Below are positions 1 to 61,343 of a DNA stretch of 64,000 nucleotides, in pieces; within the stretch, counting starts at the first letter, position 1; every line of letters begins with the position of its first letter. Source of the stretch: Lysobacterales bacterium (GTDB taxonomy: Bacteria > Pseudomonadota > Gammaproteobacteria > Xanthomonadales > SZUA-38); assembly GCA_045106555.1 (NCBI GenBank), contig JBGCET010000035.1, forward strand, positions 3,551-67,550, written 5' to 3'. The translations under genes and the position numbers were made by a program. Below the pieces are notes generated by a model. The model was not told the origin of the DNA, did not search any database, and was given only the letters and a program-made list of their open reading frames with translations.

Positions 1-148
1 CTGATTGTACGGACTGGCGCAGCGCTCCGGGGTAATTCACGGAAAATGACGCTTGTGCACGCCTTTTTGCCCGTACTGATCTTATTCAGCGGTCGGTTGC
101 GCTTCTGATAGTAAGTTCTTGACCCTGTCTGACGCTCTTGAGGTATCC

Positions 149-2281
149 ATGAAAAATCTGTTTGTTTCCCTTTTATTCACGCTGAACTGCTTGCATCTTG
201 CAGCGGCTAACACACCGATACCAGGTGTTGCCGGTTCAGCATTCTCTGTTGCTGACAGCAGCGACAAAGGGGGCTTGGCCATCTCCCTGATACATGAGGT
301 TCAGGGGGCAATGAGCAGCAGTCCTTTGAACGGTGAAGGCGTGCTGGTAGAAGCCATTGTTGTGGGCGATTTCCAAACCGGCGATGCCGATACTGGGAGA
401 GAACTTGGCGGCTTCTACGTGCAAGAAGAAGACAGTGATGCTGATGCAGACACGACGACGTCAGAAGGGGTGTTTGTCTTTGAGGGTGGCGCCTTCATTA
501 CCGATGTGCAGGTTGGCGATTTAGTTAGGGTGGCCGGTACGATGACAGAGGTCGACGGAGAAACCCGCATTGGGTCGGTAACCAGTATTTCAATTGTGAG
601 CCAAGGCAACGGGTTGCCGACCGCGTCGGAGATTGTGCTTATTCCCGATGGGCCCACAACGCTCAGTCAGAGCGGACGGCTGCAGCCGGACCTGGAAGCG
701 TTTGAAGGCATGCGGGTGACATTTACCGATACGTTGACTATTTCTGAGATGTTTCAACTTGTGCGGTTTAACGAAATTAAGCTGAGCCAGGGTGGCCGTC
801 TCGAGCAATTTACTCAGAGCAATCTGCCCGATGTTTCGGGGTTTGCTGACCACCTGCAAACCGTTGGATCACGCTCCATCGTCTACGACGACGGCCTGAA
901 CGTGCAAAACGCGCTGATCGGCAACCTGGACGGCTTTGGCCCAACGTTCAGCACTGATACCGATCTGCGCATTGGCGACACGGTAGCGGGTCTTGCCGGG
1001 ATACTCAGTTACCAATGGGCCGGCAATGCCGCCAGCCCGGCTACCTGGCGAGTGCGTGCCTCACGGGACGGCGAAAACACCTTCGACAAGGCCAATGAAC
1101 GACTGACAACGCCCGAGCCTGTCGGCGGCACCCTGAAAGTGGCGGGTTTCAACGTGTTTAACTACTTCAGCACGCTGCGGGACGCGGGAACCACCGCGAT
1201 AGGGGCCAATCCGCGAGGGGCTAGCAACGCCGCCGAATTTGCCCGGCAAACGCAAAAGCTGGTGACCGCACTGACCGCTATCGATGCCGATGTTGTCGGG
1301 CTGGTCGAGCTTGAAAATGATTTCCTGGTTGGTGCTAACGGCAATGCCCTGGACAACCTGGTTGCTGAACTCAACGCTGTGCTTGGCGCCGGCACCTATG
1401 CCTGGGTTAATCCTGGAGAGCAGTTTATTGGCGTTGATGCCATTGCCAATGGTTTGATCTACAAACCCGCGCTGGTGAGTGTTGTTGCGGTGGATTCCCT
1501 GGTCTTTCAGACCGCGTCGGGCAACGCAACCTTAGCCACTGCCCAGGTATTGAACCCGTTTGTTGGCGCAGCCGACCAAGTGTTTGACAATCAGCGTAAC
1601 CGTCCAACGTTGGCCGCCACGTTTGAAGATAGGGCAGGCCAACAACTCACCGTTGCGGTCAGTCACTTCAAAGCGAAGAGCGACAGCAACCTGCAGGACC
1701 TGGCGATGGAGGCCCAAACGGTGCTGGACGCTGGAACAACAGGATTCAGTCAAACCGACATCGATAATCTTCTTGCTGATCCAAACTACGATCAGGGTGA
1801 CGGCCAAGGCTTTTGGAACGCTGCACGCGCGGACGCCTCCTCCGAGCTGGCTCAGTGGCTATCTGACACCACCGGCGGCGGCTACGCCGCAGGCGCCATT
1901 GCCGACGCAGACTTTTTGATCGTGGGTGATCTCAACGCCTACGCTCAGGAAGACCCTGTGGCGGCGTTAGGCAGCCAGGGCTTTGTAGATCTGGCGGCAA
2001 CACGCACAACGAACCCAAGAAGTTTCATGTTCAGTGGTCAAAGTGGAACCTTGGACTATGCGCTGGCCAGCCCTTCATTAAGCAGTCAGGTCACCGGCGT
2101 GACGCTTTGGAATATCAACGCAGATGAACCTAACGCGCTCGACTACAACACGGACTTTAGCCGCGATGTTTCGATTTTTGACGGTGCTTTGCCTTTCCGT
2201 GCCTCTGATCACGATCCTATTATTGTGGGGCTGCGCCTGACCGACTTGCCACCGGAGATTTTCGCTGACGGCTTTGAGTAA
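149..2281 (+). CDS. Exported ExeM/NucH/Xds-family extracellular nuclease (endonuclease/exonuclease/phosphatase fold)
   Basis: ORF 119..2281 opens on TTG. The in-frame ATG at 149 lies 6 nt after AGGT and gives a signal peptide (MKNLFVSLLFTLNCLHLAAA). EEP-fold motifs are LKVAGFNVFNYF, VVGLVELEN, LIVGDLNAY and a terminal SDHDP. The N-terminal OB-like region resembles ExeM/Xds. The protein ends ...EIFADGFE-stop. Confidence 0.8.
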   Translation: MKNLFVSLLFTLNCLHLAAANTPIPGVAGSAFSVADSSDKGGLAISLIHEVQGAMSSSPLNGEGVLVEAIVVGDFQTGDADTGRELGGFYVQEEDSDADADTTTSEGVFVFEGGAFITDVQVGDLVRVAGTMTEVDGETRIGSVTSISIVSQGNGLPTASEIVLIPDGPTTLSQSGRLQPDLEAFEGMRVTFTDTLTISEMFQLVRFNEIKLSQGGRLEQFTQSNLPDVSGFADHLQTVGSRSIVYDDGLNVQNALIGNLDGFGPTFSTDTDLRIGDTVAGLAGILSYQWAGNAASPATWRVRASRDGENTFDKANERLTTPEPVGGTLKVAGFNVFNYFSTLRDAGTTAIGANPRGASNAAEFARQTQKLVTALTAIDADVVGLVELENDFLVGANGNALDNLVAELNAVLGAGTYAWVNPGEQFIGVDAIANGLIYKPALVSVVAVDSLVFQTASGNATLATAQVLNPFVGAADQVFDNQRNRPTLAATFEDRAGQQLTVAVSHFKAKSDSNLQDLAMEAQTVLDAGTTGFSQTDIDNLLADPNYDQGDGQGFWNAARADASSELAQWLSDTTGGGYAAGAIADADFLIVGDLNAYAQEDPVAALGSQGFVDLAATRTTNPRSFMFSGQSGTLDYALASPSLSSQVTGVTLWNINADEPNALDYNTDFSRDVSIFDGALPFRASDHDPIIVGLRLTDLPPEIFADGFE

Positions 2282-4386: not shown

Positions 4387-6378
4387 TCAGCATTCGTTGG
4401 GCAGGGTAGCGGCAAGCCGCACCACTGCGGAGACCTTCTCGCCATCCTCGCCGTTCAGCGTAAACGTTCCTGTATCGCAGCTATCCAGGGTTATTTGCAA
4501 TGTCCCCCAACGTTGCAGGGAGTCGGGTGACGCTGGGGTTTGAAATCGGCCTTCGCCGCCAATCATCATCTCCAGCGCCAGCGGTTCGTTCCCAGGCACC
4601 GGGCCGGACACCGAATTACTCACTAACCATAACCGCGAACCGTCAGCGCGATAGCCAAAGTAAAACACCGTGATGGTGCCGCCGGCTTCGATAACATTAA
4701 ACCCTTCACCTTCCTTCGCTGGATCGAACCACAGGCCGGATGCGGAAAATCCTTCAGCCTGGATTGTCCAGGTCTCACTGAACAGCCGTTGCTGGGCGTC
4801 CAGCGCACCGGACAGAAACGGTGACCGATCAATCGCCGTAAGCGTTATTTCGTATTGGCCAGGCAAGTCCGCTTGAAAGTTGAACGTTGCCGTTGTGGCC
4901 AGCGACGGGTTTTCGAGATTGGGGGTGGCCGTTGCTGAGGTCATCAGCTGTCCATCAACTGCCCACTGTGTTTCAACCCCATGGGCCGGCATCAAAAGTT
5001 TTGCCGAAAGCGCCAGGGATTGGCCGGCATTAAGCGTGATCGTTTCAGCGGGTGATGGAATCTGAGACGCGGGTTCAATGACCGAGATACCGTTGTCGGG
5101 CAATCCCCAGCCGCCGCCGTACAGAGTGCTGACATAAGTTTGGGCGCAGACAGGGCAGAACTCTCTTCCCAATGACCGCATGGCGCATTGCTGAATTGGC
5201 CGATACATTCCTTGGCTTTGATAGCGGGCGCCTTCGAACAGCCCAACAACCTCCCGAGTGCCAAGATTTGTTGGCGTAGGAATGGCAACAGACTCATCCA
5301 CCCAACCACGCCACTTCAAATGGGTGCGTCGCGTTTCGTCCGTGGCATTGGCCTCACAGGGCGGCAGCGACAGATCCCGATCACTGCACGTTGGAGCGTT
5401 AGCAAAATCCTCATACTCATCGGTCAGCAGGGTGAACGAATGTCCCCATTCGTGGATCAATAGTTCGGGCGATAACGGATGGGTGGAAAAGGTGGTGAAA
5501 AATCCACCGGCGCCGCCGTAGGTGTCGTCATTCACAATCACGGCAACCCGGTCCCAAGGAAACGGCGCTTCGGCCGCCACCCGCGCGACAGCGTTTCGAT
5601 CCACGGTTAGCAGTCGATCGAAACCTGCAGTGCAGAAGGTGCCGTTAAAGGCGGTATCCACCTCCAGCGGCGCTTTGGGATCGGTGTCCTCGCATCCGGG
5701 GTGATCAGCGCCGGATTGGTTAGATCGTACAAAGTAGGGGTGAACGTCAAGAAACTCCCGATAGGAGCGATAAGGCTCGATGGCGAAAAAACCCTCGAGG
5801 GCTCGATCCACATCCTGATGGAACTTGTCTTCCTCGGCAGCGGTATAACCCTCGCCCATTAACAGCAGATTGACCCGGTTGAGCGATCGCTCGTCCTCAA
5901 CGGATCCGCCTTTCACCGTGGCTCCGCGCTCCCTCGCGATGCCAATCAGGTCATCCACTGACCATTGATGAGTCAAGGTGGCCGATTCACCCCAGTGTTG
6001 AACCACCACCGAAGGTGCTGATGCGGGAACTCGGAGTACCACCGTTATGGTGGGTTCGGTGCGGTGATGGGTAGCTGTTGACACCCTGGCCACCACCAGC
6101 CCGTTTGCGTCCACCGCCAGCAGGGTGTTGTGCCATCGCTGACTTGATACTTTGGCAGGAGTCCGGTGAGACATATCAATTTGTTGATAATAGGTCACCG
6201 CTGGCGCCGAATCGGTAACCGAGCCGGGGTTCAACTCCAGCACCAAGTAATGGGTCGCAGCGCCATGGGCACTGCTAACGCAAAGCAGCGCTAACAATCC
6301 AGCGACGATTGCCACGCGCCATTGAAAATCGGTCTTAATTTGTTGGACGGCCGAAAAGTGTTGGGTAGCGATGTTCAC
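4387..6378 (-). CDS. Exported M64-family (IgA-peptidase-like) zinc metallopeptidase with extra C-terminal module
   Basis: 663 aa with a GTG start and a signal-like N-terminus (VAIVAGLLALLCVSSAHG). M64 hallmarks are VNLLLMGEGYT and TYGGAGGFF, with zinc site HEWGHSF followed by DEYE. The last 116 aa form a separate module (see 4390..4737). Confidence 0.8.
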   Translation of the reverse strand: MNIATQHFSAVQQIKTDFQWRVAIVAGLLALLCVSSAHGAATHYLVLELNPGSVTDSAPAVTYYQQIDMSHRTPAKVSSQRWHNTLLAVDANGLVVARVSTATHHRTEPTITVVLRVPASAPSVVVQHWGESATLTHQWSVDDLIGIARERGATVKGGSVEDERSLNRVNLLLMGEGYTAAEEDKFHQDVDRALEGFFAIEPYRSYREFLDVHPYFVRSNQSGADHPGCEDTDPKAPLEVDTAFNGTFCTAGFDRLLTVDRNAVARVAAEAPFPWDRVAVIVNDDTYGGAGGFFTTFSTHPLSPELLIHEWGHSFTLLTDEYEDFANAPTCSDRDLSLPPCEANATDETRRTHLKWRGWVDESVAIPTPTNLGTREVVGLFEGARYQSQGMYRPIQQCAMRSLGREFCPVCAQTYVSTLYGGGWGLPDNGISVIEPASQIPSPAETITLNAGQSLALSAKLLMPAHGVETQWAVDGQLMTSATATPNLENPSLATTATFNFQADLPGQYEITLTAIDRSPFLSGALDAQQRLFSETWTIQAEGFSASGLWFDPAKEGEGFNVIEAGGTITVFYFGYRADGSRLWLVSNSVSGPVPGNEPLALEMMIGGEGRFQTPASPDSLQRWGTLQITLDSCDTGTFTLNGEDGEKVSAVVRLAATLPNEC
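4390..4737 (-). other. C-terminal module copy 1 (GLWFDP...WGT..C..G..TF...C) shared by three hydrolases
   Basis: GLWFDPAKEGEGFNV...YFGY...GGEGRF...WGTLQITLDSCDTGTFTL...RLAATLPNEC-stop. It aligns by eye with 59755..60123 and 61347..61748. Confidence 0.6.
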
Positions 6379-6473: not shown

Positions 6474-8810
6474 ATGGCTGACGTGTTTGTCTCATACTCC
6501 AGAAAAGACCGGGATCGAGTGCGGCCGCTGGTGGACGCGCTGGAGCACGCAGGTCTCAGTGTTTGGTGGGACCGGGATCTGATCTCTGGTGAAGATTTTG
6601 GGCGCGCTATTGAGCGAGAAATATCCGCTGCAACGGCGGTGGTGGTGGTCTGGTCGAAACATGGCGCTGAATCTCAATGGGTTCGCGATGAGGCGAGTCT
6701 TGCCCAGCGTCAGAACAAACTCTTTCCCGTCAGTATCGATACCACGGTTGCGCCGCTGGGGTTTCAGCAGCTTCAGTCGTTGGACCTTTCTGCATGGAAT
6801 GGCGATCCGGAATTCCCAGAGCTGCAGTTGTTGGCCCAGCGTGTGGGTGGCAAACAGGATGAAAAACCAGCAAAACCAGTTGTGCCCAACAAGGAAACCC
6901 GGGGGGCGCTTTTTAACGGTGTGCTGGCGGTTTTACTGTTGGGTTGTGTCGCCCTGGCATGGTTTGGCCTTGGCGAAAAGTCGGGCATTGAACGTTCCGA
7001 CCCAAAGCAACACGATGCCATTCGACTGGCTGTGTTGCCGTTCTCCAACCTGTCTAACGATGCCGAAGACGAGCTGTTCGTTGACGGATTGTCTGAGGAG
7101 CTCTTAAACCGGTTTTCCGCAGTGGTTGGGTTACAGGTGCCGGGCCGCACCTCAGCGTTTCGCTTCAAGGGCAAAACCGGAGATCCCCAATCCATCGGTC
7201 GATCGTTGAAGGTTGAGTATCTGCTGGAGGGTGCAGTACGGCGCTCTGGGGACGTGCTTCGGGTGACCTGCGCGCTGATTGAACCTGTCACCGGCTTTAC
7301 CCGCTGGTCGCAAACCTACGATCGAGAAGTGTCTGATATTTTTCAGGTTCAGGATGACATTGCGCGGGCCGTTGTCAATCAGTTGCTAGGCGCTATTGAA
7401 TACGAGGCGACGTATCTTAAGTCGGAACAGGTAGGGGTGTCAGCAGACGCCCATATCCAGTATCTGGAGGGACGGGCGCTGTGGAGTCGTCGCAGCTCAG
7501 CGGCTACTGAGAAGTTTCGCAAGGCAATAGCGATTGATCCTGAACATGCGCTCGCCCAAGCCTATCTGGCCATTGCAAGTGCCTATTTCATTCGCTCTCC
7601 TGACCCAGAAATCAGCCAGTCTCTGAATGCAGCTGTGGCGCTCCGGCCGCAATCTCCCGACGTATTGTTTGCCCAGGGTTGGGTGGCCGAAATGTTGGGA
7701 AAATCCAGCCAATCCAGCTGGGAACAGTTTTATCAAATGGCGTTGCGGGCCAATCCGCGAAGTGTGGAGGCGCTTTATGCGGTCTATCGGCTTAGTAAAG
7801 ACCAAACCTTGCTGGAAACTGCGCTAGGCATTGATCCGGCCCATGTGCCGTCCATTTCTTCTTTGGCTGCTGAACGTTATCAGCTCAACGATATGGCGAG
7901 CGGCGGTGCGGTATTGGATCAAACGTACGCAGCGTTCCGCGATTTCCCCATCGGGGACCTTGCAGCTATCGCCAAAGACTACGGTGATATCTCAAGAATG
8001 GCGCGCCTGGTCTTTGCCGATTGGTCTCGACGCGAGAATTCTGACCCGTTTTCCCTGGCCCTGGGGCCGACGTTGCTGGCCGATTTTGGCCGCTTTGACG
8101 ATGCGCTGTTTTTCGCCTCCCAGAGCCCTGGACCATTTGGTCAACTAAATGCCGCTGCGCTGCGGGAAGACTACGACCAGTATATTGCTCTGTCCCGCGA
8201 CCCGCAGGTGCCCGGGGCGTTCCGGTCTTTTGCTCATGCGTTGGGTCTGACAGCAAACGGCAATCCAGCCGACGCGCTGGAGGTCTTGCAAAGGCGATGG
8301 CCAGAAGTCTTTACAGGCCAAAACTCTGGCGTGGATTCTGGGCGCTTTGGCTCCAGCGGAGATTGGGTCGCGATGCTCGGCGCAGTGGCTATGAGCCGGA
8401 TAGGAAAGGAAAGGGAATCGGCACAGCTTTTCCGCAAGATCCTTGCGTCAATTGAGAACAATATGGGGTCGGAGTTAATGTTCGACAGCTGGAGCGCTGC
8501 AACGCACCGGTCTATTGCCCACGCCAATCTGGGAAACCGGGATCAGGCGATGGCGTTTTTGCAACACGCTTATGATCGCGGTTTTCGGTTTCCTCGGTCG
8601 TATGGGTGTTCGTCATGTATCTGGCCCGCCATTGATGACCCCATTGGGTTTCTGGCACCGCTGGTGGGTGACCCGGAGTTTCAGGCGTTTATGAAGCGCC
8701 TGAATCTGGAAAATGAACGGCTGATGGCAACCATTAACGAGCGCTACGCAACGTTTGATACGTTCCAGGCGGCGAGAGACGCGGCAAGTGAGCGTGCAAC
8801 CGGCGAATAG
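6474..8810 (+). CDS. TIR domain - single TM helix - periplasmic sensor-like module + TPR repeats
   Basis: 778 aa. Residues 1 to about 125 follow the bacterial TIR pattern (VFVSYSRKD..GLSVWWDRD..SQWVRDE, with Glu73 at 6690..6692). One TM helix (ALFNGVLAVLLLGCVALAWFGLG). Next comes the IRLAVLPFSNLS..DGLSEELL module typical of TM one-component sensors, then about 450 aa of TPR-like helical repeats. Confidence 0.75.
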   Translation: MADVFVSYSRKDRDRVRPLVDALEHAGLSVWWDRDLISGEDFGRAIEREISAATAVVVVWSKHGAESQWVRDEASLAQRQNKLFPVSIDTTVAPLGFQQLQSLDLSAWNGDPEFPELQLLAQRVGGKQDEKPAKPVVPNKETRGALFNGVLAVLLLGCVALAWFGLGEKSGIERSDPKQHDAIRLAVLPFSNLSNDAEDELFVDGLSEELLNRFSAVVGLQVPGRTSAFRFKGKTGDPQSIGRSLKVEYLLEGAVRRSGDVLRVTCALIEPVTGFTRWSQTYDREVSDIFQVQDDIARAVVNQLLGAIEYEATYLKSEQVGVSADAHIQYLEGRALWSRRSSAATEKFRKAIAIDPEHALAQAYLAIASAYFIRSPDPEISQSLNAAVALRPQSPDVLFAQGWVAEMLGKSSQSSWEQFYQMALRANPRSVEALYAVYRLSKDQTLLETALGIDPAHVPSISSLAAERYQLNDMASGGAVLDQTYAAFRDFPIGDLAAIAKDYGDISRMARLVFADWSRRENSDPFSLALGPTLLADFGRFDDALFFASQSPGPFGQLNAAALREDYDQYIALSRDPQVPGAFRSFAHALGLTANGNPADALEVLQRRWPEVFTGQNSGVDSGRFGSSGDWVAMLGAVAMSRIGKERESAQLFRKILASIENNMGSELMFDSWSAATHRSIAHANLGNRDQAMAFLQHAYDRGFRFPRSYGCSSCIWPAIDDPIGFLAPLVGDPEFQAFMKRLNLENERLMATINERYATFDTFQAARDAASERATGE

Positions 8811-17965: not shown

Positions 17966-18529
17966 TCAGCTGCCTAACATGGCGTTGATTTCCTGTTGTT
18001 CATCCAAGCACTGACGGCGAGTGTTTCGCAGCCTTGCCGCGCGTCGTCGCGACTGGCGAACTTCCGACCTTTCCAATACCCCGTCAGCATTGGTATCCAG
18101 GCGGTCAAAACGCTCTATCGCCGTGTTCTCCGCGCTAACCAGCGCTTCATCCAAAGTAATTACCCCGTCGCCATCTAAGTCGGCAGCGTCAAATCGAGAT
18201 CCGGCATCCGGCGGTTCGGGTAGCGTAATGTCCAGGGTCTGTTCGATACAGCTGCGTAGGGCCTGTCGGTCGACGTCTGGTCGTTCGGGCAGGTCAGCGA
18301 AATCGTCGGCGGTAACAATGCCGTCCTCGTTTCGATCCAAACGCCCAAATCGGCGTTCGGCCCTTTGCGCTGACGCGGCAATAAACTCGTCTTGAGAAAC
18401 CTGCCCGTCGCCATTGCTGTCCAGGGGATTTCTCTCGCCGACTCGCGGTGATTGAGCATTCACGTCGGTCACAACCAGCGCGGGCGCCGAGGCAACGCAA
18501 ACTAACAGCAGGGTAGAAAGTGTTTTCAT
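17966..18529 (-). CDS. Exported EF-hand calcium-binding protein
   Basis: Signal peptide MKTLSTLLLVCVASAPALV. Four EF-hand loops: DSNGDGQVSQDEF, DRNEDGIVTADDF, DLDGDGVITLDEA, DTNADGVLERSEV. Confidence 0.8.
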   Translation of the reverse strand: MKTLSTLLLVCVASAPALVVTDVNAQSPRVGERNPLDSNGDGQVSQDEFIAASAQRAERRFGRLDRNEDGIVTADDFADLPERPDVDRQALRSCIEQTLDITLPEPPDAGSRFDAADLDGDGVITLDEALVSAENTAIERFDRLDTNADGVLERSEVRQSRRRAARLRNTRRQCLDEQQEINAMLGS

Positions 18530-29519: not shown

Positions 29520-31592
29520 TTATTGAAGACTGCGCAACAGCGCCTGAATATTCCGGTTAGTGGGAAACGCCGACGCCAACTGCTGGGCGGTGGTACGGGC
29601 GGACTCCAGCTGACCCGCGTCCCGTTGCAGGGTGGCTAGCGCCCAACCAATGTCAAAGTCATCGGGAAAACGTTCACGGGCCTTCGCCATCAGCGGCAAC
29701 GCAGCAACAGCGTGGCCCGTTGAATTGAGCGCAATGGCGTAGACGTAGATGAATCGAGAATTGTCGGGTGCCAGACTCGAGGCCGTTTTTAACGCGCCCA
29801 AAGCGTCTGGAATACGTTTTTGACGAACCAGGAACAAGCCATAAGCGTGATGGGCTAAAGCCATCCCAGGCAGCACTCTCAGCGCGAGTTGGTAAGCATC
29901 CTCGGCGGCGTCAACATTGCCGGAGCGAGATTCAAGGTCTGCCAGTGCCAGCGCATTGCCTGGCAAAAAACCGTTGGAACGAAGACTGACTCTTGCTTCA
30001 TTCAGGGCGCCACGTAACGCCAGCGAACGCTCCATCGACAGCCGATTCTCGTCAGCTGCCAGCGCATTTGCTGCCTGGATCCGTACCGCCAGGATCGGGT
30101 CGGTCAGCAGCGGGCTGGCGAGCGCGACGCGGCTGGCCGGAGCAAGGGAAGTCACAGAACGTAAGGCGCCAATGCGCAGCAGCGGATTGGGGTCGACTAG
30201 GTGCAGCTCCATGACCTGGGTGGACATGACGCGGGCATCCAACATCGTGAGTGCGGTTGCCCGCACAATGTCTGGTGTTTGCGTATCACTGGCAACAGCA
30301 GCCAATCGCGCGTTGGCCCCTGGGGCGCCTGACCGTGCAGCAGCAAAAGCGCTGCCGAAGTGATCAGGTCGAGTGCCTGCGCCTGGTATTGCAAAGCTGT
30401 GATCTCGCCGGTTGTCAACGCCCATATAGGTGCGGCTTTTCATATGGCACTCCACACAGTTTCCCGCGGTTTCTGCCTGCGAAGACCCATGGTCCAGTTG
30501 GCCAAATCGGGCCGGCAGGTGGCATTGGGCACAGACGCCATTGGGGTTTGCCGGCGTTTTCAGTAGGGTGCTGTGGGGGTTGTGGCAATCGCTGCAGGTC
30601 ACACCGGCCTGATACATGCGGCTTTGCAGGAATGACCCGTAGACGTAAACTTCATCCCGAATCTGGCCGTCATCAAAGTACAGGTTGGCCTCCAGTAATG
30701 CGGGCTGATGGGTGTTGGTGAGAGGCTCGCCAAAGCGGTAATCCACACTGAGGGTACTACGCCTGGCATGACATCGGCCGCAGGCTTCCACTTGTTTAGG
30801 TGAGGCTGCGGGGAGGGAGCGCTGGGCGATTGCGGTATCAGCGTTCATGAGCCATTGAGCCTGGCCCCGGTCGTTCAGCGACAGGGCAAGGCCCAGGTCA
30901 GGCCGGAATTTTTCGGTCCGTGCCTGAGTCACGTGATCTGAGCCGGGTCCATGGCACCCCTCGCAGCCCACAGACACCTCCGAAAACGTTGTGTCAAAGG
31001 TGTTTTCGACGGGGTCGTAGTTCACCTTAAGGTTTGTCGAGTGACACTCGGCACACATCCCGTTCCAGTTAAACATGGGGCCGGCCCAATGCAGCTCATC
31101 GCCCGCCGGCGTGGTCTCATCCAGCAGAAGATCAAACCAGCGTTGTCCGCCCTGATCGGCGGTCCGGCTGTCCCAAGCCACGGTTAGGGCCTGTTTGCGT
31201 CCACCCGCGGTATCCACCAGATACTGTTGCAGCGGATACACGCCAAAGGTGTGGGTGATGGTAAATGTCTTTGGTTCTCCGGCAGTGTCGAACGTTCTGA
31301 TCTGGTATTGCCCGCCGTTGGTTTTGAAGTGAATCTCACCGGCGGAACTTTCGAAGGAATGATTGGCAAAGTTACCTAAAACGGATTGAGGTGTGGCCAC
31401 CTGCATCGCTAACTGATGATGGGAGCCTTGCCATTGCTCGTACGCATCGCTATGACACTCCCCACAAACTTCGCTGGTAACAAATTCCGCCGCCCACCCG
31501 CTGATGGGGCCAGCCAGTGCAAGTAGCCAAACCGCTAGCCATCGAGCTTTTCCCGGGAGTATTGTCTTACGCAAACTTATCGATAGCCTCAA
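29520..31592 (-). CDS. Periplasmic multiheme c-type cytochrome (7 CXXCH) fused to C-terminal TPR repeats
   Basis: Heme motifs CGECH, CAECH, CEGCH, CGRCH, CSDCH, CAQCH and CVECH fall in the first ~400 aa. The C-terminal ~280 aa are TPR-like. TTG start at 31592 (a second TTG at 31574). Signal WLAVWLLALAGPISGWA. Confidence 0.8.
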   Translation of the reverse strand: MRLSISLRKTILPGKARWLAVWLLALAGPISGWAAEFVTSEVCGECHSDAYEQWQGSHHQLAMQVATPQSVLGNFANHSFESSAGEIHFKTNGGQYQIRTFDTAGEPKTFTITHTFGVYPLQQYLVDTAGGRKQALTVAWDSRTADQGGQRWFDLLLDETTPAGDELHWAGPMFNWNGMCAECHSTNLKVNYDPVENTFDTTFSEVSVGCEGCHGPGSDHVTQARTEKFRPDLGLALSLNDRGQAQWLMNADTAIAQRSLPAASPKQVEACGRCHARRSTLSVDYRFGEPLTNTHQPALLEANLYFDDGQIRDEVYVYGSFLQSRMYQAGVTCSDCHNPHSTLLKTPANPNGVCAQCHLPARFGQLDHGSSQAETAGNCVECHMKSRTYMGVDNRRDHSFAIPGAGTRPDHFGSAFAAARSGAPGANARLAAVASDTQTPDIVRATALTMLDARVMSTQVMELHLVDPNPLLRIGALRSVTSLAPASRVALASPLLTDPILAVRIQAANALAADENRLSMERSLALRGALNEARVSLRSNGFLPGNALALADLESRSGNVDAAEDAYQLALRVLPGMALAHHAYGLFLVRQKRIPDALGALKTASSLAPDNSRFIYVYAIALNSTGHAVAALPLMAKARERFPDDFDIGWALATLQRDAGQLESARTTAQQLASAFPTNRNIQALLRSLQ

Positions 31593-32196
31593 TCAGCGCC
31601 TCTGGCGGCTGGGCGCCAACCAGCGCCGCCTTGCCGTCAAAGATAATGGTCGGGACGCCGGTTACGCCCATTTGCCGGTATTGCTCATCGATCTTGCGTA
31701 CCTCGCTCAAATCGCCTTCAAGAATCGATCGACAAACCTCTTCGCTGATGCCGCAGCCTGCTGACAGTTTAACCAGCGTGTCGTCATCGCCGATATCGAC
31801 CGCCGATACAAAAAATCCCTCAAGGATGTTTTCCTTCAGTTGATTTTGTCGTTCCCATTGGCCATCCAGGTGGTGCAGCAGGGTGTGGGATTTGAGCGTA
31901 TTGGGTTGACGGGTGATGGCGTCAAAGGCAAATGCCAAGCCCAGACTGGCGCCGACCTCTCTTAGCTGTTCCACCATTCCTGCCAGGCGGTCGCTGTTAC
32001 CGAACTTCTGTTTCCAGTGAGTTTCCCGATCCACACCTTCCAGCGGCATGTCCGGGTTGAGCTGAAACGGTTGCCAGCGACAGTCCACTGCCACCTCCGG
32101 GCGCGCAGCCAATGCGGCCTCCAGATGACGTTTGCCAACAAAACACCAGGGACACACGGTGTCGGAGACGATGTCGATTCGTAGCGGCTTGGTCAT
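31567..32196 (-). CDS. DsbA-family (FrnE/HCCA-isomerase-like) thiol oxidoreductase
   Basis: ATG at 32196. IDIVSDTVCPWCFVGKRHLE carries the CPWC active site. The 3' end overlaps the cytochrome gene start. Confidence 0.8.
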   Translation of the reverse strand: MTKPLRIDIVSDTVCPWCFVGKRHLEAALAARPEVAVDCRWQPFQLNPDMPLEGVDRETHWKQKFGNSDRLAGMVEQLREVGASLGLAFAFDAITRQPNTLKSHTLLHHLDGQWERQNQLKENILEGFFVSAVDIGDDDTLVKLSAGCGISEEVCRSILEGDLSEVRKIDEQYRQMGVTGVPTIIFDGKAALVGAQPPEALIEAIDKFA

Positions 32197-32394
32197 ATTC
32201 TGCTCACGGTAGGTTCTTCGGCAGTTTGGTGGCAAATCGTTTCAAAGGCAAAAGTTGCATGCCTATTTGTGTATACCCAAATTCGCCTGGTGCACGTTTG
32301 GGCAAACCCTGGTTCTCCTCACGGCATGGCCGACAGGGCCGGCCGAACCCTACCATTTGACGCAAATGACCCAATCCCCTTTGAGGTGCGCTGA

Positions 32395-34680
32395 ATGTCA
32401 CACAAATTACTGAAAACCCCGTTACCTGCGTGCGTGGCGCTGGCGCTAAGTATGCCGGCAGCCGCTCAGCTGGAAGAGATTGTTGTGACCGCGCAAAAGC
32501 GCGAGGAAGGGTTGCAGGATACGGCCATTGCCGTCACCGCCTTTACCGCTGGAGCGATCGAGAACAAAAATATCGTTGATATCTCTGAGTTGGCAAACTT
32601 CACACCTAACCTGGTGTTTGATACGACCTCCCCGGTGAGCGGCCTGTCGTCTGGTGCGGTGATCTTTATCCGCGGCATTGGCAATACCGATTTCAGTCTG
32701 ACTACCGACCCGGGTGTGGGCACCTACGTAGACGGTGTCTATCTGTCCCGCTCTGCCGGCGGCGTTTTTGACGTGTTGGATATCGAGCGCATTGAGGTCC
32801 TTCGGGGTCCCCAGGGGACGTTGTTTGGCCGTAACACCATTGGTGGCGCGATGAGCATCACCTCGCGCAAGCCGGGCCGGGAACTCAGTGGCAGCCTCTC
32901 TGCAACCGCCGGCAATTTTTCGCGCTTTGACGTGCGGGGGTCGCTGGATGTGCCCGTTTCAGAAAAGCTGCTCACCAGTTTTGTGTTTTCCCGAAAATCC
33001 GCCGACGGCTATGTGGATCGGGTGCTCGCCGGTGGTGAGCTGGGTGACCAGGATCGGATCGCGTTTCGTGCCAAAGCCGTGTACGAAGCCACCGACAATC
33101 TCGACTTCCAGTTGACTTACGATTACACAAAAATTGATGAGAACAGTGCAGCGTCAGTCATCCTCGGGTTCACGCCGGGTGCCAGCACCATTGGTTACGA
33201 TCTGTTCCGCGCAGCGTTTGCTCCAGACCTTCCGCCGGTGACAGACTTCTTGCGTAACCCTGAAGATGACGTCAGCTTTACTGATGGACCTACCGGCACT
33301 GACCTTGATTTGAACGGTGTATCGTTCAGCGCAACCTATACAGCCGATAGCTGGGCGCTGAAGTACATAGGCGGATTTCGCGATACCGACGGATCGTTCA
33401 ACCGCGACCCTGATAACACCCCGATCGCCATCACCCACACCTTTAATCCTGAGTATGAGCATGAACAAACCAGCCACGAGCTGCAGTTGACAGGCAACAT
33501 CGGCGATCGACTGCAATACATCGCTGGTGCCTACTTTTTTGAGGAAGACGGCACCGACAACGTGTTTGTGCCCATATTTCTTCCCAACGTTGACGACCCG
33601 GCCAATCCCTTTGGGTTTCCCGCAGCGGTGAATAACTTTGCCACCGTAGACAACTCCAGCGACGCGTTTTTTCTGCAGGGCACCTATGACATAACCGATA
33701 CCGTTTCGGTGACAGCAGGCATTCGTAAAACCGATGACGACAAAGGTTTTCGCTACACCCAGTACATCGCAGCCGATATCGACGGCAATCCGTTGCCAGT
33801 GCCGCTGTCGGCGGTCGACGAAAACGGCAACCTGACCCCAGGGTTAATTCCTATCGTCGGAAACGGTAGCGGCAATGAAACCATTTCCTTTGACGAGACC
33901 ACCGTTCGCCTTGGCCTGGACTGGGCATTTCAAGACAATGCGTTGGTCTACTACAACTACTCAGAAGGTTTTAAGAGTGGCGGCTTTGTCCTGCGCTACG
34001 TTGAGGCCCGACCGGCGCCGCTGACCTTCGACCCTGAGTTTGTTGAGTCCCATGAGATTGGTTTGAAATGGCAGGGTTTTGATGACCGCGTAAGAGTCAA
34101 TACGGCGATTTTTTCCATGGACTATCAGGATGCCCAGGTGACGTTTTTCGACAACCTGGGCGGACCCATTACGGCGAACGCCGGCAGCGTAGACATAACC
34201 GGCTTGGAGTTAGAGGTTACCGCTCTGGTGACAGATAACCTGCTGCTGGAGCTGGCTTACGGATACACCGACGCAGAATATCAGTCGATTCGACCTATCG
34301 GGGGGCTGTCACTAACCATTGATGAAACCGCCAGCCTGGTGAATACGCCAGAAAACTCGCTGCAGCTGGGCGCTGAATACTCCTGGCTGCTGTCCGGTGG
34401 CGGCGATCTGACACTCCGAGGTGACTATATTTACACCGACGATATTTTCAACGATTCACAAAACTCACCGTTTCTGTTCCAAGATGCCTACGACATGGTC
34501 AACCTGGCGCTGTCCTACACGGCTAGCGATGAACGTTGGAGCCTCACCGGGTTCGTCAAGAACGCCACTGACGAGCGATTTATTACCAGTGGAGATTCCA
34601 ATTTCGGTTTGGGCTTTCACGAAGGTAACCTGAATCGACCGCGAGAATACGGCCTGCGTCTGAACTACAACTTTAACTGA
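32395..34680 (+). CDS. TonB-dependent outer-membrane receptor
   Basis: Signal peptide. Plug region LEEIVVTAQKREEGLQDTAIAVTAF and IEVLRGPQGTLFGRNTIGGAMSI. 761 aa barrel. Confidence 0.9.
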   Translation: MSHKLLKTPLPACVALALSMPAAAQLEEIVVTAQKREEGLQDTAIAVTAFTAGAIENKNIVDISELANFTPNLVFDTTSPVSGLSSGAVIFIRGIGNTDFSLTTDPGVGTYVDGVYLSRSAGGVFDVLDIERIEVLRGPQGTLFGRNTIGGAMSITSRKPGRELSGSLSATAGNFSRFDVRGSLDVPVSEKLLTSFVFSRKSADGYVDRVLAGGELGDQDRIAFRAKAVYEATDNLDFQLTYDYTKIDENSAASVILGFTPGASTIGYDLFRAAFAPDLPPVTDFLRNPEDDVSFTDGPTGTDLDLNGVSFSATYTADSWALKYIGGFRDTDGSFNRDPDNTPIAITHTFNPEYEHEQTSHELQLTGNIGDRLQYIAGAYFFEEDGTDNVFVPIFLPNVDDPANPFGFPAAVNNFATVDNSSDAFFLQGTYDITDTVSVTAGIRKTDDDKGFRYTQYIAADIDGNPLPVPLSAVDENGNLTPGLIPIVGNGSGNETISFDETTVRLGLDWAFQDNALVYYNYSEGFKSGGFVLRYVEARPAPLTFDPEFVESHEIGLKWQGFDDRVRVNTAIFSMDYQDAQVTFFDNLGGPITANAGSVDITGLELEVTALVTDNLLLELAYGYTDAEYQSIRPIGGLSLTIDETASLVNTPENSLQLGAEYSWLLSGGGDLTLRGDYIYTDDIFNDSQNSPFLFQDAYDMVNLALSYTASDERWSLTGFVKNATDERFITSGDSNFGLGFHEGNLNRPREYGLRLNYNFN

Positions 34681-34691
34681 GGAATTCGTGC

Positions 34692-35720
34692 ATGAGTGAC
34701 CAACCCCAACTGGTGAAAGCCGCCGCGGTACAGGCAGCGCCTGCGTTCATGGACCTCAAGGCGTCGGTGGAAAAAACGTGCGACTACATCGCAATGGCAG
34801 CGGGACAGGGCTGTGACCTTGTGGCCTTTCCCGAGACCTGGATTCCCGGTTATCCCTGGTACATTTGGCTCAATGCCACTGCCCTGAACATGAAATATTT
34901 TGGTCAGTACCACGCCAACTCCCTGGCCATTGGCAGCGATGAATACGAGACCATTGCTCAGTGTGCCAAGCAACACAACATTTACGTGTCGTTGGGCGCG
35001 AGCGAGCGCGACCATGGCTCTTTGTATATCGCCCAGTTTCTGTTCGGCCGCGACGGGCAAACGCTGGCCACCCGCCGCAAACTCAAACCCACCCACATGG
35101 AGCGCACGGTGTATGGCGATGGCGACGGTTCAGATCTCAAAGTAACCGAAACCGATATTGGCAATATTGGGCAACTGGCCTGCTGGGAGCATCTTCAGCC
35201 CTTAAATCGGTACGCCATGTTCAGCCTGCATGAACAAATTCACGTGGGTGCCTGGCCCTCGTTTAGCATGTATCCCGAGGCGCATGCGTTGGGGCCAGTA
35301 GTGAATACTGCGGCATCATTGACCTACGCGGTGGAGGGAAGTTGTTTTGTTGTTGCCCCTTGCGGCGTGATCTCCCAGGAAATGGTGGACGCCCTGGTAG
35401 AAAACGAAACCCACGCTGCGCTCATGAAAAAAGGCGGCGGTCACGCGCGGATATACGCTCCTGACGGCAGTGCTATGGGAGCCAATATTGACCCGGAAGA
35501 AGAGGGGCTGGTGGTGGCTGACCTGGACTTAAGCGCCATTACCATTGCCAAGTGCTTTGCTGACCCGGTGGGGCACTACTCCCGACCGGACGCCACCGCT
35601 TTACTGTGGAATCAGCAGCCGATGACGCCCACTCGCCCTATGGCCGGTGCCCTACGCGTTGCCAGTCAGACAGACAACGGCGAGGATTGTCCGGCGGACG
35701 GCGACAGCGGTGCCGAGTAG
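34692..35720 (+). CDS. Nitrilase (carbon-nitrogen hydrolase superfamily, branch 1)
   Basis: The E-K-C triad contexts are VAFPETWIPGYP, RRKLKPTH and GQLACWEHLQPL. 342 aa. Confidence 0.85.
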   Translation: MSDQPQLVKAAAVQAAPAFMDLKASVEKTCDYIAMAAGQGCDLVAFPETWIPGYPWYIWLNATALNMKYFGQYHANSLAIGSDEYETIAQCAKQHNIYVSLGASERDHGSLYIAQFLFGRDGQTLATRRKLKPTHMERTVYGDGDGSDLKVTETDIGNIGQLACWEHLQPLNRYAMFSLHEQIHVGAWPSFSMYPEAHALGPVVNTAASLTYAVEGSCFVVAPCGVISQEMVDALVENETHAALMKKGGGHARIYAPDGSAMGANIDPEEEGLVVADLDLSAITIAKCFADPVGHYSRPDATALLWNQQPMTPTRPMAGALRVASQTDNGEDCPADGDSGAE

Positions 35721-35733
35721 CTCCCCGCTGGCG

Positions 35734-36744
35734 ATGAACCGGGTTCAAGCATACGATGAGTCTATGAAATTTGTGATTCGCAACGGTTACCAGAAGGACG
35801 TTGACGACCTTAAGGGCATGTCCCGTTGGGAATACTGGTGCGATGTGGTTAATCACGAGTTTGTGAATCTGGACTGCTCGGCAATCCCCGGTCAGGACAA
35901 AAGTGATTTCAGCGGAACGCTGCGAGGGGGGCTGGGCGTTGGTCAGGTCAATTTTTCTGAGGTGGTGGCTATGCCTCAATTTGTTCAGCGATCGCGGCAA
36001 CGGATTGCCCGCGCGACCAAAGACGATTTTCTCATCAGCTTCCAGCTGGAACGCGAATGCGTGGTGCGCCAATCGGGCCGCGAAGCGCTGCTAAAACCCG
36101 GTAGTTTTGCGCTCTACGACAGCGCGTCGGAATACTCTCTGGCGTTTGCTCGCCCATTCCACCAGTTCGTTTTGCAGATGCCCCGAGATGTGTTGTCTCG
36201 GCATCTGATGGAGCCTGAGAAGTATACCGCCATTCCCATCAGCGCCAATGAAGGAATGGGGCTGATACTGAAGAACTTTCTTTACTCCCTGGTGGGCGAA
36301 CTCAGCGCTACCGACGAACCGATCAACGACCAGCTGTCCGACAATCTGGTCAACATGATTGCGCTAACCTTCAGTTCAACGGTCATCACCAGCAAATTGA
36401 TTGAGACCGACTGCGTCAAAGAAGCGCTGATGCGAAGGTTGCGTCAGTTCATCGACAACAATCTGTTCGACCCCCGATTGAATAACGCGCGCATTGCGGA
36501 ATCTCAGAACATCAGTGTGCGCTACCTCTACAAGCTGTTCTCCGGTGAAGCTGAATCCGTTCACGAGATGATCATGCGCAAGCGGCTGGAGGCTTCCAGG
36601 GCGATATTGATGGATGAGCACACGCGTAGGCCCTCCATCGAAAGCCTGGCACATCACGTAGGTTTTGCCAGTGCCGCCCATTTTTCCCGAGCCTTCAAAA
36701 AGCGCTTCGGCGCCAGTCCCAGCGACGTATCGCCTCAGGCATGA
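35734..36744 (+). CDS. AraC-family transcriptional regulator (effector-binding N-domain + HTH)
   Basis: The maximal ORF (35647) would overlap the nitrilase gene by 74 nt; ATG codons at 35734 or 35764 avoid this. C-terminal HTH is ARIAESQNISVRYLYKLF...GFASAAHFSRAFKKRFG. Confidence 0.8.
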   Translation: MNRVQAYDESMKFVIRNGYQKDVDDLKGMSRWEYWCDVVNHEFVNLDCSAIPGQDKSDFSGTLRGGLGVGQVNFSEVVAMPQFVQRSRQRIARATKDDFLISFQLERECVVRQSGREALLKPGSFALYDSASEYSLAFARPFHQFVLQMPRDVLSRHLMEPEKYTAIPISANEGMGLILKNFLYSLVGELSATDEPINDQLSDNLVNMIALTFSSTVITSKLIETDCVKEALMRRLRQFIDNNLFDPRLNNARIAESQNISVRYLYKLFSGEAESVHEMIMRKRLEASRAILMDEHTRRPSIESLAHHVGFASAAHFSRAFKKRFGASPSDVSPQA

Positions 36745-36781
36745 AAAGGCGTGTTCAATCCGCAATTCACAGGGTAAGACC

Positions 36782-37822
36782 ATGACGCAAAGTACTACCG
36801 GTAATCGCACCTACTCGCTGAAGATGCCCGACGGCTGGGAGCCGCCTTATCCGTCGTTCATGTCCGAATTTGACGACAATAGAACGACGGTGGTGATGTG
36901 CTTGATGGGGTGCCAATACGATGAGGGCCATCGTCCCGACGCGCTGGCTCTGGTTCAACAGCTGAGAGCGCTGATGCTGGAATTTGGCCAGGCGGCCTAT
37001 GTGGACTTATCCGAATGTGAGGCCGACAGTGCAGGGCGACGGCAACTCGTGGCCACGGGCTATTGGTTTGAACCCGAACCTTTGCGCCGTTTGTTTGAGT
37101 CTGAGGGGTTTACTCAAACTTGGGGTGCCCATACCCAGGCGGATCTTCCTTATGGCGTGTTTCGTGAGGTATTCAACTTTCCCATGAGTCGGTTCGAGAC
37201 CCTGCATTCCGGTCCGGATCATCTGGTGGGTATTGCCAATGTGCGCGACGGCATTACCGAGCCTATTCCCCGCCATGCCTATTGGGGCAGCATGCGCGAT
37301 CGAATACCGGACGCAGCCATTGACCGGTTTGAGGCCAACGAGCGCGTCCAGGTGCTGGATCAAGATGCTCACAGCGTGACCATTCGGCCTAACGTGAATC
37401 TGGCCATTATCCGCTCTGGCCAGGACATCACTGACGCGGTGGACGAGGAACGCGCTCAGTACTCCAACGATGTTGAGCCAACCCTGGTTAACGGCATGAA
37501 CTTTCTGCGCGACGAAGGCGAGGAGGTGAAGTGTTATGACTGCCGATTTTTCCGCTTTGTCGATGAGCACGGGGAACCGTCAGACCATACGTACGGCTAT
37601 GCGTATTTTCAGTCGCTTGAGGAGCTGGAAAAGTGGGCTGAGCATCATCCCTCTCACAACGCCATCTTTGGTTCTTTCTTAGAGTTTGCACCCAAGTATG
37701 GCGAGGACATGCGCTCACGGTTTTGGCACGAAGTCGCGGTGCTGCCGGCAGACGATCAGTTTGCTCAGTATGTGAACTGCGCCGAGGGCACCGGGCTGTT
37801 GGGTGGCCTGAACCCCCGATAG
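36782..37822 (+). CDS. oxd: Aldoxime dehydratase (heme enzyme, Oxd family)
   Basis: ATG at 36782. Blocks HAYWGSMRDR, LAIIRSGQD, EPTLVNGMNFLRDEG, LEKWAEHHPSH and FWHEVAVL..YVNC match the Oxd family as I recall OxdA/OxdB. Length 346 aa. Confidence 0.8.
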   Translation: MTQSTTGNRTYSLKMPDGWEPPYPSFMSEFDDNRTTVVMCLMGCQYDEGHRPDALALVQQLRALMLEFGQAAYVDLSECEADSAGRRQLVATGYWFEPEPLRRLFESEGFTQTWGAHTQADLPYGVFREVFNFPMSRFETLHSGPDHLVGIANVRDGITEPIPRHAYWGSMRDRIPDAAIDRFEANERVQVLDQDAHSVTIRPNVNLAIIRSGQDITDAVDEERAQYSNDVEPTLVNGMNFLRDEGEEVKCYDCRFFRFVDEHGEPSDHTYGYAYFQSLEELEKWAEHHPSHNAIFGSFLEFAPKYGEDMRSRFWHEVAVLPADDQFAQYVNCAEGTGLLGGLNPR

Positions 37823-57101: not shown

Positions 57102-57248
57102 GGATGCTGCCCTCAAATTCAGGCGGCAGTTTTTGGCGTGCCGCAATGTTCGCTAGCCCGACGATTGAGCGGGAGGGCGATTTCTGATTTGAGTGTGGAG
57201 CAGCGCGAGAGGGGTGTTTACCCAAATTATTGGGGGTCGGAGAAGTTT

Positions 57249-59105: not shown

Positions 59106-59752
59106 AGAATGCCCAGTTCCCGCGCTTTGTGTACCGCCTCGCCCCGGGATCGAGCGGCCAGCTTGCTGTAAATTTCTTGAGCGTAGGTGGACACCGTGTT
59201 GAACGCGATGTCCATTTCTGAAGCGATTTGCTGGTAGGTCAGACCTCTAGCCAACAGGTTCAGCGTTTGTTGCTGACGTGGTGGCAAAAAGGTCGAAGGC
59301 TCTTCCCTTGGGGCAGGCTCAGCCAACCGAATATGACTCATGATGCATTGGGCCACCGAAGGGCTCAGCGGCGGCTTGCCGTCGACAATTTCAACCAGAG
59401 CGGTGCGCAGATTGGTTTGGGTGTCCTGCTTCAGAAGATATCCCTGGGCCCCTAATCCGATCGCGTTGACGATGGTTTCCTCATCGCTGAATCCCGACAA
59501 AATAACCACCCGGGCAGGGCGGACTTCACTGTGTTGGTCCACCAGGAGTTCCAGTCCGTTACCGTCGGGCAACCCCACGTCCAGCAAGATCAGCTCAGGT
59601 TGGTTAATCGCCTGCAGTCGGCGGGCGTCAGCCAGGCTTGCGCAGGCCCATAATGAGCCTTCGCTAACCAGGTCCGCCAGGGATTCCCGCAGGTGACTTT
59701 GCAGCGCGGGATCGTCTTCTACGATCAGCAGGCTGTTGATGGGTGAGCCCAT
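59102..59752 (-). CDS. Response regulator, NarL/LuxR family
   Basis: ATG at 59752 shares 1 nt with the upstream stop (TAATG). Receiver LLIVEDDP..LILLDVGLPDGNG. HTH LTYQQIASEMDIAFNTVSTYAQEIYSKL. Confidence 0.85.
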   Translation of the reverse strand: MGSPINSLLIVEDDPALQSHLRESLADLVSEGSLWACASLADARRLQAINQPELILLDVGLPDGNGLELLVDQHSEVRPARVVILSGFSDEETIVNAIGLGAQGYLLKQDTQTNLRTALVEIVDGKPPLSPSVAQCIMSHIRLAEPAPREEPSTFLPPRQQQTLNLLARGLTYQQIASEMDIAFNTVSTYAQEIYSKLAARSRGEAVHKARELGIL

Positions 59753-61272: not shown

Positions 61273-61343
61273 CTGCCCATTATAGCCCGCCTTCGACCAA
61301 TGGACGTGTGACAGAAATCTCGACGCTTTTGCAGGCTGGTGGG

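Follow-up and report, generated by a model that had tools for sequence, protein, structure and literature searches.

The stretch of DNA analysed here, called the window throughout, is 64,000 nucleotides (64 kb) long and comes from contig JBGCET010000035.1 (positions 3,551 to 67,550, forward strand) of assembly GCA_045106555.1, an NCBI metagenome-assembled genome (MAG) labelled Lysobacterales bacterium. Three of its genes specify hydrolases, the products of which end in similar tails carrying a pair of cysteines. We are confident that these tails are copies of one domain family and that the domain is a beta-barrel of the calycin (lipocalin/avidin) type. The three genes are the following.

4387..6378, minus strand: gene for an M64 (IgA-peptidase-type) zinc metallopeptidase, 663 aa (open reading frame [ORF] and PF09471)
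59752..61272, minus strand: gene for a beta-lactamase-fold serine hydrolase (Blac), 506 aa (ORF and PF00144)
61344..62918, minus strand: gene for an M23 metallopeptidase, at most 524 aa, start uncertain (ORF and PF01551)

The catalytic domains were recognised by the Pfam models PF09471 (E 4.9e-43), PF00144 (E 1.1e-27) and PF01551 (E 3.1e-10), and the corresponding catalytic motifs are HEWGH at residue 309 of the M64 protein, SVTK at residue 83 of Blac and HVH at residue 321 of the M23 protein. At NCBI the Blac product is named 'serine hydrolase domain-containing protein' (MFK7957677.1) and the M23 product 'M23 family metallopeptidase' (MFK7957678.1); the latter is annotated as 461 aa, and as 518 aa in the Logan gene call. 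A preliminary description of the window, made from its letters alone, had called all three hydrolases exported. This stands for the M64 protein, which has a hydrophobic N-terminus with a Sec-type signal peptide (…VAIVAGLLALLCVSSAHG, followed by AA), and for Blac (MTGKVFTTLALLLALTSGGYA, followed by FE), both as read from the sequence, but the N-terminus of the M23 protein is ambiguous. In the part of this ORF that specifies it (62727..62918) the hydrophobic segment is preceded by just two start codons, an ATG at residue 1 and a TTG at residue 7, and either gives an unusually long leader of about 50 residues, rich in Arg, Lys and Cys and containing a twin-arginine-like 'FRRTLIG'. The start chosen by NCBI, at residue 64, would remove the whole signal sequence. 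The export route of this protein is therefore ambiguous.

The M23 and Blac genes head a minus-strand series (57249..62918) in which they are followed, with almost no gaps, by genes for a LuxR/GerE-type response regulator (59102..59788, its start overlapping the Blac stop) and a 7TMR-DISM histidine kinase (57249..59105). The same gene order is repeated on an independent Logan contig. So close a succession resembles an operon and suggests that the two hydrolases are under two-component control.

In all three genes the module forms the 3' end of the minus-strand ORF. The copies below were delimited with an independent hidden Markov model (HMM) of the family, trained on 265 copies of the domain in other proteins, none of them from the window or nearly identical to its sequences.

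4390..4752, minus strand: module copy 1, M64 residues 543-663 (independent family HMM, E 4.6e-28)
4477..4479, minus strand: Cys634 codon (TGC), first conserved Cys of copy 1, lying in the strand 6-7 turn
4390..4392, minus strand: Cys663 codon (TGC), second conserved Cys of copy 1, last residue of the M64 protein
59773..60141, minus strand: module copy 2, Blac residues 378-500 (independent family HMM, E 6e-32)
59872..59874, minus strand: Cys467 codon (TGT), first conserved Cys of copy 2
59785..59787, minus strand: Cys496 codon (TGT), second conserved Cys of copy 2
61353..61766, minus strand: module copy 3, M23 residues 385-522 (independent family HMM, E 1.8e-15)
61455..61457, minus strand: Cys488 codon (TGC), first conserved Cys of copy 3
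61359..61361, minus strand: Cys520 codon (TGC), second conserved Cys of copy 3

Copy 2 is followed by a 10-residue tail of low confidence (59755..59784). The preliminary description had aligned the three tails by eye and taken them for one module on catalytically unrelated hydrolases, and statistical alignment likewise found them homologous. Pairwise BLASTP gave E-values of 3e-15 (M64/Blac), 5e-10 (Blac/M23) and 7e-4 (M64/M23), and the independent HMM, run without any HMMER filter on the window translated in six frames, recovered each tail. Beyond these three it found nothing at E ≤ 1, that is, no fourth or degenerate copy in the 64 kb. Both cysteines are kept in every copy (residues 634/663, 467/496 and 488/520), as had been claimed. 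The starts proposed earlier (4737, 60123 and 61748) coincide exactly with the first G in G[LS]W[FY]xP, the profile envelopes being slightly longer than the spans then given (for copy 1 a core of 4390..4737). The hand-made motifs were right in substance, with small slips at four places: G-x-G-[FVL] reads A-Q-G-V in the Blac copy, Y-[FT]-Y reads F-G-Y in the M64 copy, the terminal [EG]-x-C is N-E-C in the M64 copy, and GG-x-F is E-G-R-F in M64 and G-G-R-P in Blac.

The window modules are single copies and come from different subfamilies. Copy 1 belongs to a 'YYGY' type ('GLWYDP…GEGYN…YYGY…G.RLWL.S…LAG..G..C') and has 37-45% identity to single-domain relatives, copy 2 to a 'YWFTYD' type ('GSWYDP…YW[FY]TYD..G.Q.WL.G.G'), and copy 3, the most divergent of the three, has insertions in two loops. 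Between copy 2 and the orthologous Blac-plus-module proteins P0008 and P0203 and the ORF of locus L052, module identity is 57-64%; judged by sequence, the Blac module has travelled together with its catalytic domain. When the relatives of each window copy were ranked, the other window tails came only 77th to 395th of about 430. Every copy is far closer to modules of other organisms, and a recent intragenomic duplication was rejected on this ground. The domain shuffling proposed earlier holds in the sense that one module sits on many chassis, but the window copies are not recent shuffles of one another.

Structures were predicted independently with AlphaFold2 for the M64 tail (28-sequence alignment; pLDDT 92.0, pTM 0.84) and the Blac tail (4-sequence alignment; pLDDT 82.6, pTM 0.75). 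Both models have eight beta-strands in simple up-and-down succession and almost no helix, in line with the beta-rich domain that had been expected. As modelled, the module is an eight-stranded up-and-down beta-barrel of about 120 residues, with 110-130 residues in the barrel. Foldseek against PDB gave no match at E ≤ 1e-3 for either model. The matches listed are nearly all calycin-type or designed eight-stranded barrels with TM-scores (structural similarity scores) of 0.4-0.57, and include nitrophorins, the Rhodnius amine-binding protein, retinol-binding protein, ApoD, crustacyanin and Escherichia coli Blc, as well as avidin/streptavidin, FABP/CRABP, VtrC and TbpB barrels. A lipocalin- or avidin-like fold, which the preliminary description had named among those to be looked for with Foldseek, is thus what the models show, through matches that are weak.

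Sequence comparison points the same way without reaching significance. The family profile has no significantly similar chain in PDB; the best is retinol-binding protein, with which it aligns G-x-W in register with the lipocalin motif at a non-significant E of 0.38. In the family G-x-W, on strand 1, is nearly invariant and L-x-R-L, on strand 8, is conserved. Lipocalin, Lipocalin_2, Avidin and related Pfam models gave no match at E ≤ 1 to the three proteins or to 40 isolated copies of the domain. The module resembles the calycins (lipocalins such as retinol-binding protein, nitrophorins, ApoD and Blc; avidin/streptavidin) in its eight antiparallel up-and-down strands, and its strand 1 G-x-W and last-strand Arg recall the established calycin signature, in which the G-x-W packs on a basic residue of the final strand. 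It differs from them in the absence of significant sequence similarity (no Pfam match; best PDB E 0.38; TM-scores of 0.4-0.57), in open-end loops that are conserved and not hypervariable, and in being a repeated accessory part of multidomain exported proteins where calycins are stand-alone carriers. It also has no long C-terminal helix packed on the barrel. In lipocalins the C-terminal segment is commonly attached to the barrel by a disulfide. The fold itself is of a known kind.

Beta-barrel domains are known to follow beta-lactamase-fold peptidases, namely the lipocalin-like DUF3471 (Pab87-type) and domains B and C of the D-aminopeptidase DAP. The 506-aa Blac protein is similar in that a small eight-stranded barrel follows its PF00144-type domain. 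It is dissimilar in that PF00144 is the only Pfam match on it at E ≤ 1 and in that the module is not specific to beta-lactamase-fold enzymes. For neither model did the 50 best structural matches listed include DUF3471- or DAP-type entries.

Two export signals were considered and rejected. XVIPCD is the C-terminal mark, about 120 residues long, of Xanthomonadales toxins sent through a bacteria-killing type IV secretion system, and it shares with the module the bacterial order, the size, the terminal place seen in the window and the attachment to unrelated hydrolases, including peptidoglycan hydrolases (PMC8740702). Its fold, however, is alpha-alpha-beta-beta-beta, followed by a glutamine-rich tail, and its binding partner is cytoplasmic VirD4 (PMC8740702). 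The module is all-beta, has a conserved Cys pair and no Gln-rich tail (the tails end in Cys or in a short Ala/Ser stretch), and is found, often N-terminally, on proteins with Sec-type signal peptides, whereas XVIPCD is read in the cytoplasm and has neither signal peptide nor Cys pair. The family profile found no XVIPCD chain in PDB. Membership is refuted by fold, Cys pair, signal peptides and position, and the chance that the tails are such a mark is next to nil. The C-terminal domain (CTD) of type IX secretion was likewise rejected: no Pfam or NCBIfam CTD model matched, the host belongs to the Lysobacterales and not the Bacteroidota, and the module is often N-terminal.

HMMER, run exhaustively against 1.84 billion representatives of clusters at 50% identity, gave 8,129 family members at E ≤ 1e-3, 3,684 at E ≤ 1e-10 and 302 at E ≤ 1e-30. 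Their consensus reads SGxWYDPxxxGEGF … YWFTYDxxGxQxWLxGxG … GGxFGxxFDP … WGxLxxxFxxCxxG … LxRL … GxxC, with one conserved Cys after strand 6 and the other near the C-terminus of the domain; exactly two Cys are present in 254 of 268 family copies (about 95%). A word-indexed protein search with the three tails returned a single match, and a search with a 40-sequence profile only 50 short or fragmentary proteins, all of them unnamed.

The preliminary description placed the module in no family, and the databases agree with this. No Pfam-A or NCBIfam model covers the tails, in the full proteins at E ≤ 1 or in the 40 isolated copies, PDB yielded nothing significant, and the HMM searches assigned the module to no characterised binding or sorting domain. 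Where carriers have a public name at all, it is 'hypothetical protein' or that of their catalytic domain. Full-text searches found no description of the module in Lysobacter, Xanthomonadales or Wenzhouxiangella, and one Legionella paper on the type II secretion system (T2SS) names Wenzhouxiangellaceae solely for an unrelated protein. In the resources covered (Pfam-A 2025, NCBIfam 20.0, PDB 2026, source names and the full-text literature) the family appears to be undescribed, and so do the two-Cys signature and the way in which it serves exported proteins as a promiscuous and mostly duplicated accessory module.

The only recurrent signal in the isolated copies was to CBM_56 (5 of 40; E 0.0082-1), all of it sub-threshold. 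The N-terminal domain of GNBP3 is a beta-sandwich and not a closed barrel. Carbohydrate-binding module (CBM) family 56 has been described as resembling that domain (PMC7915573). The family profile, moreover, found no CBM56 chain at E ≤ 10 in PDB, which should include the CBM56 crystal structures of PMC7915573, and membership in this beta-1,3-glucan-binding family (PF22184) was rejected, the matches being sub-threshold and structurally unsupported.

The architecture of carriers was tallied for the 150 best representatives. The position of the module was as follows.

C-terminal: 82/150
N-terminal only: 42/150
Module-only proteins (<130 residues outside the modules): 15/150
Internal: 7/150
At both ends: 4/150

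A C-terminal place, assumed in the preliminary description, is therefore a feature of the window copies and not of the family. Two copies were present in 147 of the 151 proteins examined (a set that favours high summed scores), and a tandem pair in 53 of 67 module-bearing ORFs from 56 genomic loci; elsewhere the usual form is the tandem pair and not the single copy. One protein, P0163, consists of a signal peptide, a linker and one module. By a crude test, a signal-peptide-like hydrophobic stretch is present in 105 of 138 representatives that start with Met. Pfam partners on the 125 carriers scanned include M14, S8, S41 and M23 peptidases, beta-lactamase and cyclophilin on the one hand, and leucine-rich repeats (LRR), DUF1800, Kelch, NHL, FG-GAP, PKD, CarboxypepD_reg and SGL on the other. 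These are catalytically and structurally unrelated, many not being enzymes, and the spread from M14 to DUF1800 extends to the family what had been noticed for three hydrolases. The module of these carriers was left uncovered by every Pfam family, and a scan of carriers with NCBIfam added no sorting tags.

The 56 loci were recovered with a family-specific peptide pattern ('ALVYWFTY', from a four-sequence alignment), which biases the taxonomic sample to that subfamily. Within it they are overwhelmingly from Lysobacterales (Wenzhouxiangella, Wenzhouxiangellaceae, Elongatibacter sediminis, and MAGs of Rhodanobacteraceae and Xanthomonadaceae), with a few from beta- or gammaproteobacterial MAGs, and several genomes hold two or three loci each. 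The module genes have no recurrent neighbour, no family being present in more than four of the 107 flanking ORFs. DUF1800 is found on five module-bearing proteins and DUF1501 in four neighbouring ORFs, so that in this lineage the module has become part of the known DUF1800/DUF1501 gene pair. Five loci (L035, L040, L043, L045 and L046) have two or three adjacent module-bearing genes, those of L043 being 583-aa paralogues in tandem, which indicates local gene duplication. In two MAGs with isolate names MFD… (L051, 3728..4748; L055, 2141..4746) the module region is broken into three or four overlapping ORFs in different frames, a sign of frameshifts that are due to errors of sequencing or assembly or else mark pseudogenes.

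Per-column conservation of the family was projected onto the predicted strands. It peaks in strand 1 (SGxWYDP) and the strand 1-2 hairpin (GEGF), at the end of strand 3 and in the 3-4 hairpin (YDxxGxQxW), in the long 5-6 loop (GGxFGxxFDP), in strand 6 (WG), at the Cys of the 6-7 turn, in strand 8 (LxRL) and at the terminus (GxxC). On an up-and-down topology loops 1-2, 3-4 and 5-6 would lie at one end of the barrel, and both termini and the 6-7 turn at the other. From this topology the two Cys can meet and would staple the C-terminal segment to the barrel, and the conserved loops would be clustered at the end opposite to the linker by which the module joins its protein. The ligand enters lipocalins at the corresponding end, where the cavity opens between the loops 1-2, 3-4, 5-6 and 7-8.

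Since the partners are unrelated, the position is free, duplication is usual, module-only proteins exist and the open end is conserved, we read the module as a non-catalytic binding or tethering domain with one putative ligand common to all carriers. This function is proposed tentatively, at somewhat short of an even chance, and the common targeting role suggested in the preliminary description is likewise tentative. For the same four facts and the conserved end, a terminal secretion signal or a domain serving one enzyme fits less well. The module would fold after export, when the Cys pair would form a disulfide linking the 6-7 turn to the C-terminal segment at the barrel end that holds both termini. 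The opposite, open end, bearing the most conserved loops (DP…GEGF, YD..G.Q.W and GG.FG..FDP), would bind the common ligand, tandem duplication would add avidity, and the fused partner, be it a peptidase, a serine hydrolase, a propeller or an LRR protein, would be tethered to a surface. As a functional analogy only, LysM, SLH, choline-binding repeats and CBMs are also non-catalytic, fused promiscuously, often in tandem and free in position. Their folds are unrelated to that of the module, and the sole CBM signal is the sub-threshold one to CBM_56.

As target we would prefer the outer membrane or envelope of the producer itself, a lipid or glycolipid being held in a calycin-type site, with the prey cell wall a close second. 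What the carriers have in common is that they are exported and belong to a single lineage of bacteria, and this favours tethering to the own envelope; retention on the producer's own surface specifically is nonetheless possible rather than probable. Wenzhouxiangella AB-CW3 lyses Gram-positive prey and shows no proteolytic activity in the medium. The authors' conclusion was that the outer membrane must anchor the lytic proteases; they could not infer whether the peptidases are inserted into that membrane or displayed on it (PMC7691419).

Several points weigh against binding by the open end and against retention at the envelope. The structural matches are all weak (best E 5e-3, TM ≤ 0.57), so that 'calycin-like' describes a fold class, homology being undemonstrated. 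The conserved loop residues are mostly Gly, Asp and Pro and may reflect turn geometry and not a binding site, and as strands 1 and 3 have conserved aromatics on either face, the core could be filled, with no cavity. The tie to cell-bound proteolysis in Wenzhouxiangella is circumstantial.

The main alternative, hardly less likely although doubtful in its own right, is that the barrel binds a wall polymer of the prey (peptidoglycan, teichoic acid or a polysaccharide) in the manner of a CBM and so concentrates lytic enzymes and adhesin-like proteins there. Cell walls or proteins are plausible substrates of many partners (M23, M14, S8, S41 and the DD-peptidase-like beta-lactamase fold), the M23 and beta-lactamase-fold genes adjoin in the window, and a relative of the lineage preys on Gram-positive cells (PMC7691419). 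The CBM_56 matches, 0.0082 at best, could be counted on this side too, but they lie below any threshold, and the 50 best structural matches listed for each model include no CBM. The cyclophilin, DUF1800, Kelch, NHL, FG-GAP and LRR partners, moreover, have no common substrate.

An eight-stranded barrel on diverse partners recalls the cargo of the type XI secretion system (T11SS), in which a barrel of the TbpBBD/lipoprotein C kind is joined to interchangeable effector domains, TbpB having two such barrels (PMC12282271). The module could accordingly be a sorting domain that directs its carriers to the surface, the medium or vesicles, either as a barrel read by an outer-membrane translocon (T11SS-like, Slam/DUF560) or as a folded feature read by the T2SS. 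The design shared with T11SS cargo (PMC12282271), the TbpB barrels among the Foldseek matches and the C-terminal place in 82 of 150 representatives speak for this, as does the presence of the T2SS in the core of Wenzhouxiangella genomes (PMC7691419); as the T2SS recognises folded proteins, the position of the module need not be fixed. The likeness to T11SS cargo, however, is confined to weak TbpB matches (TM 0.41-0.46), with no match of TbpBBD or other cargo-barrel Pfam models and no handle or 'pedestal' domain evident in module carriers. A DUF560 gene is absent among the 45 window ORFs scanned, and DUF560 is not one of the 25 commonest families of the 107 ORFs that flank module genes. The 42 carriers with N-terminal modules only and the habitual tandem pairs fit avidity better than a signal. 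A sorting or secretion role in general has a small share of the probability, and one of the T11SS-like kind is unlikely.

Smaller still is the share of a structural or regulatory appendage with no external ligand, acting by avidin-like oligomerisation, as a 'foot' for solubility or stability, or as an intramolecular inhibitor that keeps the hydrolases latent in the periplasm. The barrel has the size and type of avidins and lipocalins, and a protein-protein interface could be made by the aromatics that are conserved on the two faces of the strands. Oligomers are formed by avidins and by many lipocalins, and metalloprotease inhibitors of the Inh/AprI type are eight-stranded barrels, which the inhibitor variant would resemble. 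The 50 best structural matches listed for each model, however, contain no such inhibitor, the Inh, MliC and Avidin Pfam models gave no match, and the occurrence of the module on non-enzymes and in module-only proteins means that an inhibitor (or oligomerisation) role cannot be general.

To return to tethering by the module, its furthest-reaching form is rather unlikely. Here the domain would be a lineage-wide 'address tag' of Lysobacterales/Wenzhouxiangellaceae, binding outer-membrane lipid or lipopolysaccharide, or being read by the T2SS or another outer-membrane secretion machine.

Several other genes of the window may be mentioned, their roles being suggested by domain content. Divergent from the M64 gene, 6474..8810 (plus strand) specifies a 778-aa protein with an N-terminal TIR_2 domain (E 3e-25) and TPR repeats, which may be of a defence or NADase type. 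At 32395..37822 (plus strand) a TonB-dependent receptor, a nitrilase-family CN_hydrolase (E 4e-49), an AraC-type regulator and a haem-containing aldoxime dehydratase (Dehydratase_hem, E 4e-77) form what looks like an aldoxime-nitrile utilisation locus. The minus-strand region 52962..57146 specifies a 1,394-aa protein that is for the most part without Pfam assignment, its recognisable parts being VWA, a C-terminal CarboxypepD_reg and a weak eCIS_core match. At 29520..32235 (minus strand) the gene for a 690-aa multihaem cytochrome c, which ends in TPR repeats, lies directly downstream of, and overlaps, one for a DSBA-like thioredoxin-fold protein. Two proteins without the module are probably further exported proteins: one of 720 aa that seems to have a signal peptide and ends in an Exo_endo_phos nuclease/phosphatase domain (119..2281, plus strand), and one of 187 aa made up of EF-hand calcium-binding motifs (17966..18529, minus strand).

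With at least 8,000 clusters that have no entry in Pfam-A, NCBIfam or PDB, annotation of Lysobacterales-type secretomes is blind to a large share of them. The group affected consists of poorly studied marine, saline and soda-lake Gammaproteobacteria, and defining the domain would at once improve the annotation of its carriers. Were the module a tether or an address tag, it would offer a testable answer to how lytic enzymes are retained on the surface of Wenzhouxiangella-type bacteria, a small disulfide-stabilised barrel usable as a surface-display fusion tag, and a further instance in which a calycin barrel has been taken up as an accessory module and repeated. Were it an address tag in particular, an arsenal of exported peptidases, wall hydrolases and adhesin-like propeller and LRR proteins would be held on the cell surface. 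This would explain the cell-bound, contact-dependent lysis of prey in Wenzhouxiangella and would represent a new class of surface-retention or sorting domain built on the calycin barrel.

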